From the IMG/VR virus record IMGVR_UViG_2531839006_000011, positions 1 to 13,089 of that record: a DNA stretch of 13,089 nt; one strand, 5' to 3'. The notes under the pieces were generated by a model, which saw only the letters and a list, made by a program, of their open reading frames with translations, made no database searches and was not told the origin of the DNA. Position 1 is the stretch's first letter. Every line of letters begins with the position of its first letter. The stretch comes from a virus. Its lineage: Duplodnaviria; Heunggongvirae; Uroviricota; Caudoviricetes. The position numbers and the translations under genes were made by a program. Positions 7,309 to 7,882 of the stretch are shown one piece after another.

Positions 7309-7778
7309 GTAATAACTTGTCACAGGCCACCAACGGACTGTTGATGCAGCTGGTGATGGATCTCAAAAGTGGCTATCTGCGCCGCTGTGAAGCGCTGGGG
7401 CTTTCCCGGGAAGAAATGCAGATGCTGCAGGGGCTGAGTATTGAGGAAATTCACTATCTGTCAAATTCAGAGGTGTCAGTGCTGCGGCTGGATATTAACC
7501 ACAATAACCTTGTACGCATGCTGCAGCAGGCCAGGACTGAACAGAAACGCCTGCAGCGAATCGATCGCGCTCTTGCACTGGGGGGATCGATTGAACTCAT
7601 GGCGTTTTATTTTGGCCTTTCCAGTGTGGACGTTGCAGCACGGCGCCGTATTTCAGGAATTGATGTGCGCCCGGGCGGGGTATCACACTCAGCGATGATG
7701 AAAACTCTGAACTCTGGAGACTGTGGCAGAAAGCAGGGATTAACGATGTGGAGAGCGCTGACGGGCTGGACGTCATGA
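7305..7778 (+). CDS. Hypothetical protein (157 aa as one frame; possibly frameshifted or fused, see findings)
   Basis: ATGA overlap with the upstream gene (ATG 7305-7307, TGA 7306-7308). From 7664 the +2 frame is also open and more protein-like, so the 3' part is uncertain. Confidence 0.55.
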   Translation: MSNNLSQATNGLLMQLVMDLKSGYLRRCEALGLSREEMQMLQGLSIEEIHYLSNSEVSVLRLDINHNNLVRMLQQARTEQKRLQRIDRALALGGSIELMAFYFGLSSVDVAARRRISGIDVRPGGVSHSAMMKTLNSGDCGRKQGLTMWRALTGWTS

Positions 7779-7882
7779 TGCTCTGTGCAGAGCAGATGAA
7801 TATCCCGCTCACGGCCGTCTGGCATGCTGTCAGGGGGTGGCATACAGCCGGAAGCCCTGAACAGGTAAGGAATGCGTCATGA
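7775..7882 (+). CDS. Small ORF (35 aa from ATG; 44 aa if GTG 7748 is used), HTH-like, overlaps both neighbours by ATGA
   Basis: ATG 7775-7777 overlaps the upstream TGA 7776-7778, and its TGA 7880-7882 overlaps the downstream ATG 7879-7881. Sequence MMLCAEQMNIPLTAVWHAVRGWHTAGSPEQVRNAS; the frame is open from 7664. Confidence 0.3.
   Translation: MMLCAEQMNIPLTAVWHAVRGWHTAGSPEQVRNAS

Follow-up and report, generated by a model that had tools for sequence, protein, structure and literature searches.

What reading of positions 7305-7882 (+ strand) accounts for a conserved coding region that begins in one reading frame and continues in another is the question raised by this locus of the window, by which we mean the whole stretch of 13,089 nucleotides analysed here. 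In frame 0, an ATG at 7305 opens a run of 157 codons that ends with a TGA stop at 7776-7778 (+ strand), and the frame shifted by -1 has a TGA at 7661-7663 and thereafter 72 open codons as far as a TGA at 7880-7882, the two frames overlapping over 7664-7778. Within the overlap lies the heptamer CCCGGGC (7670-7676, + strand), which is read in frame 0 as C CCG GGC and has the X XXY YYZ form. A sequence-only reading of this stretch had noticed the frame switch and offered three alternatives: a programmed frameshift, an indel in a G/C run (pseudogene or sequencing error), or two separate genes. Its coordinates for both frames and for the heptamer were each verified against the sequence, the position of the heptamer was confirmed to be such that a slip there enters the -1 frame 7 nt past its opening, and its estimate of a chance of about 3 percent for 72 open codons was reproduced ((61/64)^72 = 0.032; 0.025 with the composition of the window). 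The open length of the -1 frame is by itself weak evidence: off-frame open runs of at least 72 codons were counted in 4 of 364 cases among the + strand genes of the window, the antisense strand at the same spot has ORFs of 132 and 78 codons, and X XXY YYZ heptamers in frame are not rare (6 per 2753 codons in the window). The antisense ORFs (7597-7995 and 7607-7843, - strand) had no Pfam match and were dropped as candidate genes. The frame switch is nevertheless more than chance, because the -1 peptide is homologous to DUF2857.

The homology comes in two parts that fit together. The 157-aa product of frame 0 matched DUF2857 (PF11198) over positions 2-116 of 174 (E = 2e-42, 145 bits), the match ending at residue 124, and the -1 peptide alone (72 residues) matched positions 114-173 of the same profile (E = 4e-18, 66 bits), with the homology of the -1 frame beginning at 7667. 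When the two were joined at the heptamer, the match extended over positions 2-173 (E = 5e-66, 222 bits); the joined sequence and both parts exceed the gathering cut-off of PF11198 (36.8 bits). For the frame-0 tail past the junction no homology was found in Pfam. Since the profile positions 2-116 and then 114-173 are consecutive, one DUF2857 domain is divided over two frames. The joined translation is 100 percent identical to WP_006859641.1 (UniRef D9CH40_ECOLX; 192 aa), residues 1-124 (frame 0) and residues 125-192 (-1 frame) each being equal to the matching part of that protein; the fusion of about 190 aa that had been predicted from the sequence corresponds exactly to this ancestral protein. 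Codons 1-124 of the DUF2857 (BisC-like) gene, ending with GGC for Gly124, occupy 7305-7676 (+ strand), as given by the PF11198 match, and the -1 frame now holds codons 125-192 and the ancestral stop codon at 7676-7882 (+ strand), as given by Pfam and by protein identity.

Comparison of the DNA with its relatives places a single-base difference at this junction. The window reads CGC CCG GGC GGG G, with a run of three G (G3; 7673-7675, + strand), where relatives read CGC CCG GGG CGG GGT, with a run of four (G4); in the DNA alignment at the site the window (GCGCCC-GGGCGGGG) is one G short of the relatives (GCGCCCGGGGCGGGG), with no other change. At the position of the heptamer the relatives read CCCGGGGC and CCCGGGC is absent, its presence in the window being due to the deletion. 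Over window positions 1461-13089 (11.6 kb), the missing G is the sole difference from E. coli TUM1887 (L003). A 701-base query round the site had matches in 66 E. coli complete genomes, and each of the best 30 of these 66 matches has a length of 702 bases and the annotation DUF2857 domain-containing protein. With a 77-base query centred on the site, 31 close E. coli complete genomes were matched, every one with G4 and none (0/31) at 100 percent identity; the matches take up 78 bases for query positions 1-77 and 76 bases for query positions 3-77, i.e., one base extra, and all 31 carry the same annotation as a DUF2857 domain-containing protein. Metagenome contigs retrieved with a pattern admitting either allele were G4 in all four cases, and a scan of species-representative genomes with this pattern found neither G3 nor G4. 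In the relatives, the gene is a continuous frame of 579 nt with a 192-aa product. Consecutive profile matches together with an indel exactly at the frame switch, the two signs by which a frameshifted gene (pseudogene or assembly error) was tested for, were both found at this locus.

We conclude with high confidence that 7305-7882 is one DUF2857 gene in which GGGG has become GGG at 7673-7675, a one-base deletion that is not programmed. Both the gene family and the type of mobile element are known, and a copy with a frameshift such as this one is ordinary and not novel. The sequence-only reading is in part supported, because the second of its alternatives, the indel in a G/C run, is the right one: one G of the G4 run is absent, and G4 is present in every relative examined. 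Its programmed frameshift and its two genes did not stand. None of the observations speaks against the indel.

The protein homologs tell the same story. At least 1000 public contigs encode the intact 192-aa protein. The truncated 157-aa product was absent from about 15 billion proteins and 153 billion gene positions, and so were the 44-aa and 35-aa products that could be made downstream. Lengths of 184-210 aa and alignments over about 90-100 percent of the joined query are seen in nearly all of the best 120 homologs listed, whose genera include Salmonella, Pantoea, Serratia, Erwinia, Klebsiella, Dickeya, Brenneria, Pectobacterium, Cedecea, Xenorhabdus and others. Nine shorter homologs among these 120 are N-terminal partials or have an internal deletion or sporadic frame errors, and in eight of the nine the motif ...VRPGRG... 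runs uninterrupted across the junction, the ninth (P0046) being printed only to just before it. In an alignment of 14 sequences across genera, G118, I119, R122, G124 and R125 are invariant on both sides of the break, and the part now in the -1 frame holds 18 invariant columns (R125 and 17 further ones), including L129, W138, W141, Q142, G154, L155, D156, M158, A162, E163, L169, T170, W173, A175 and V176. With so many invariant columns beyond the break, the lost C-terminal part must therefore be under constraint. The relatives encode a single 192-aa protein, which is the continuity across the junction that had been suggested as a check, and the two-frame arrangement, which had been held to speak against a single gene, occurs in 0 homologs among the 31 E. 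coli genomes, the four metagenome contigs and the listed proteins. Two of the homologous sequences show irregularities of their own: P0046 (185 aa) fits one additional G in the G5 run whose counterpart in the window is at 7833-7837, and in P0056 a double frameshift, short and compensated (GGDRLNSWRFYFG), lies around window positions 7590-7615. Both point to sporadic homopolymer indels or errors in the DUF2857 gene across assemblies.

Was the base lost by the organism or by the assembly? That the cell's own DNA lacks this G, as a real strain-specific mutation, has in our judgement an even chance. A sequencing or assembly error, in which case the organism has the G4 allele and makes a normal 192-aa protein, comes at a little under even chances. 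Where 11.6 kb agree in every other base, the lone difference is a homopolymer indel, it sits in a G/C-rich palindromic context (CCCGGG) and is the kind of difference that assembly errors produce, the G3 allele is private to the window when set beside the protein collection, the 31 E. coli genomes and the four metagenome contigs, and sporadic frame errors of one base turn up in this gene in other assemblies too (P0046, P0056), all of which would suit an error. However, in each of the 42 homopolymer runs of 5-7 bases that the window contains, the sequence is the same as in the relative, so that a chemistry generally prone to homopolymer errors does not fit the pattern, and a run of four G is an untypical error site for current chemistries. 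If the G was lost in assembly, the sequence simply needs correcting; if the organism itself lost it, the island copy in question is probably unable to fully activate its transfer, a small instance of strain-specific decay of a mobile element. For annotation, 7305-7882 should be described as one frameshifted DUF2857 (BisC-like) gene, rather than as a recoding site or as a 157-aa gene beside an ORF that lacks an explanation.

Programmed -1 ribosomal frameshifting at C CCG GGC, by which the 192-aa fusion would be made beside the 157-aa product of frame 0, is very improbable in the light of the relatives. In its favour, the X XXY YYZ heptamer stands in frame 0, inside the overlap and close to the opening of the -1 frame, a slip at C CCG GGC would yield the exact full-length protein of the family (with the junction peptide ...DVRPGRGITLSDDE...), and a Shine-Dalgarno-like AGGA at 7655-7658, 12 nt 5' of the heptamer, falls within the 6-17 nt criterion for a stimulator (PMC4066793). 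However, a -1 slip at any point in 7664-7778 would restore the frame, which is the arithmetic of a one-base deletion, and the AGGA encodes Ser-Gly in the intact alleles also. The heptamer is missing in all 35 relatives checked as DNA, which have the G4 sequence in a single frame, and the two-frame arrangement with its slippery site is conserved in no homolog. The 84 nt downstream have a folding energy of -17.1 kcal/mol, where shuffled sequences average -17.6 (z = 0.18), and give no structure signal; the frame-0 tail of the 157-aa product is without homology. The motif C_CC.G_GG.C belongs to a poor class, being named a poor frameshifter in E. coli by Sharma et al. 2014, where GGN codons, heterogeneous ZZN codons and motifs that mix purine and pyrimidine in X and Z are described as less shift-prone (PMC4066793). 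The bacterial -1 sites of dnaX (A AAA AAG) and of the IS3 family (A AAA AAG or A AAA AAA) likewise have an X XXY YYZ heptamer in the upstream frame, and the window resembles such sites in its upstream Shine-Dalgarno-like tetramer; unlike the dnaX and IS3-family sites, it has a heptamer of a poor class, no 3' structure, no conservation, and relatives that are without the heptamer. Both C CCG GGC and the open -1 frame are simply traces left by the deletion. We therefore reject the programmed frameshift, together with the two-gene reading, because the deletion made the heptamer, which is a poor frameshifter followed by RNA of no notable structure. What ruled out the frameshift that had been proposed at CCCGGGC is the combination of G4 and a continuous 192-aa frame in the relatives, the motif class and the unstructured downstream RNA. 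As the AGGA lies 12 nt upstream, trace -1 slippage that restores the wild-type protein may still occur.

An even smaller probability attaches to the idea that the run of G serves as a phase-variable (contingency) tract and switches the activator gene on and off by slipped-strand mispairing. A change of homopolymer length within a gene of a regulator family would be in keeping with it, but the tract has just four bases and is exactly G4 in 35 of 35 relatives, with no length polymorphism, whereas contingency tracts usually have at least seven bases and vary between isolates; phase variation was ruled out on account of this short and invariant tract. Two separate genes, i.e., the 157-aa protein and a short protein starting independently at GTG 7748 or ATG 7775, are the least credible reading and were ruled out: both start codons are present in the -1 frame, but the 157-aa, 44-aa and 35-aa products are all missing from the protein collection (neither downstream product is among the approximately 15 billion proteins), the homology of the -1 frame begins at 7667, far 5' of both start codons, and the homologs of the DUF2857 gene are single proteins.

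The genes around the frameshifted DUF2857 gene identify its setting. On the sequence evidence, the window contains the conserved module from the end of an integrative conjugative element of the type represented by SPI-7, pKLC102 and ICEclc, and the annotations at near-identical loci agree with this assignment to the ICE core module. It comprises ParA (1604-2482), a DnaB helicase of the SPI-7 type (DnaB-PI; 3557-4945), an ICE-type ParB (4935-6584, + strand; NCBIfam TIGR03764 ICE_PFGI_1_parB, E = 1e-113), which has the gene position of a BisD-like partner, a DUF2786/DUF7168 gene (6577-7308, + strand), the DUF2857 gene itself (7305-7882, + strand), a gene with a ParE-like toxin domain (7879-8127, + strand; Pfam PF24732, E = 2e-19) and a protein of the STY4528 family (11824-13089). 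The DUF2786/DUF7168 and ParE-like genes are annotated in the relatives as well. The genes flanking the DUF2857 gene are coupled to it by overlapping codons: an ATGA at 7305-7308 combines the start codon of the DUF2857 gene with the TGA of the DUF2786/DUF7168 gene, and another ATGA at 7879-7882 combines the ancestral DUF2857 stop with the ATG of the ParE-like gene. The ParB at 4935-6584 had no Pfam-A match at E <= 0.01, yet it scored 379 bits on NCBIfam TIGR03764. WP_006859641.1, from E. coli islands of the pheU/pheV type (SPI-7 / pKLC102-PAGI-2 family), has the same gene neighbourhood as the window; its gene is in one frame, whereas the window is without one G, so that the protein is not in one frame. 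The islands that carry WP_006859641.1 may be ICEEc2-like.

The best-described relative of the encoded protein is found in ICEclc, where the DUF2857 protein is BisC, the C subunit of the activator BisDC, and its partner BisD carries a ParB domain (PMC7423338); BisDC switches on the transfer competence of ICEclc and its own expression (Carraro et al. 2020, eLife, PMC7423338). A Phyre2 similarity of BisC to FlhC has been reported (PMC7423338), and the joined sequence of the window gave a weak FlhD-like signal (E = 0.001). The joined product shares the Pfam family PF11198 with ICEclc BisC, and as bisC goes with the ParB-domain gene bisD in ICEclc, the DUF2857 gene of the window lies downstream of the TIGR03764 ParB gene in an ICE core module. 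Unlike ICEclc, in which bisD and bisC are described as consecutive, the window has the DUF2786/DUF7168 gene between the ParB-like and the DUF2857 genes, and in contrast to BisC of ICEclc its copy is split by the frameshift. The activator function is known from ICEclc BisDC only, and the enterobacterial homolog of the window may have it by analogy.

If the deletion is present in the cell, ribosomes would read 124 correct codons and then 33 missense codons (GVSHSAMMKTLNSGDCGRKQGLTMWRALTGWTS) before they stop at 7778, the out-of-frame tail with its TGA taking up 7677-7778 (+ strand) in the translation, and the conserved C-terminal 68 residues would be lost. The ATGA start of the next gene would be uncoupled, with the new stop 101 nt before the ParE-like gene, and expression of the downstream genes could drop. 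By analogy with BisDC, activation of island transfer would be weakened or abolished in this copy; we infer loss of function of the protein and weaker activation of island transfer. It is very doubtful that the G3 allele is real and also selected, such that a BisC-like subunit is disabled or strongly attenuated and the island is locked in the chromosome with rare -1 slippage. In that case, rare slippage at C CCG GGC would regenerate the wild-type protein and leave a very low residual activation, and the bistable switch for transfer would be tuned down but not fully off.

The left end of the module shows several further features. Positions 1461-1510 (- strand) correspond to the 3' 50 nt of a tRNA gene (GGGGATTGAAAATCCCCGTGTCCTTGGTTCGATTCCGAGTCCGGGCACCA), which we take to be tRNA-Phe; the 5' half is missing, and a terminator follows, a terminator-like hairpin lying at about 1425-1455 next to the partial tRNA-Phe. 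ARAGORN and Rfam found no tRNA at this end of the island. The partial tRNA-Phe probably represents the attachment-site repeat of an island integrated at a phe tRNA gene. In the RefSeq relatives a 78-nt 'tRNA-Ser' is annotated at the partial tRNA-Phe, which looks like a miscall of it. Just past the partial tRNA-Phe, a gene for a 420-aa tyrosine recombinase occupies window positions 1-1263 (- strand), and the left flank varies by strain, with an integrase in some and yghD or IS110/kpsF in others, which points to islands in tandem or to insertion at different phe-tRNA sites. Further to the right, a direct repeat of 145 bp with about 93 percent identity (9837-9981 and 10668-10812) has its copies at the starts of the ORFs 9837-10235 and 10668-11081, and in the relatives these two ORFs are among ead/Ea22-like fragments annotated as partial pseudogenes.
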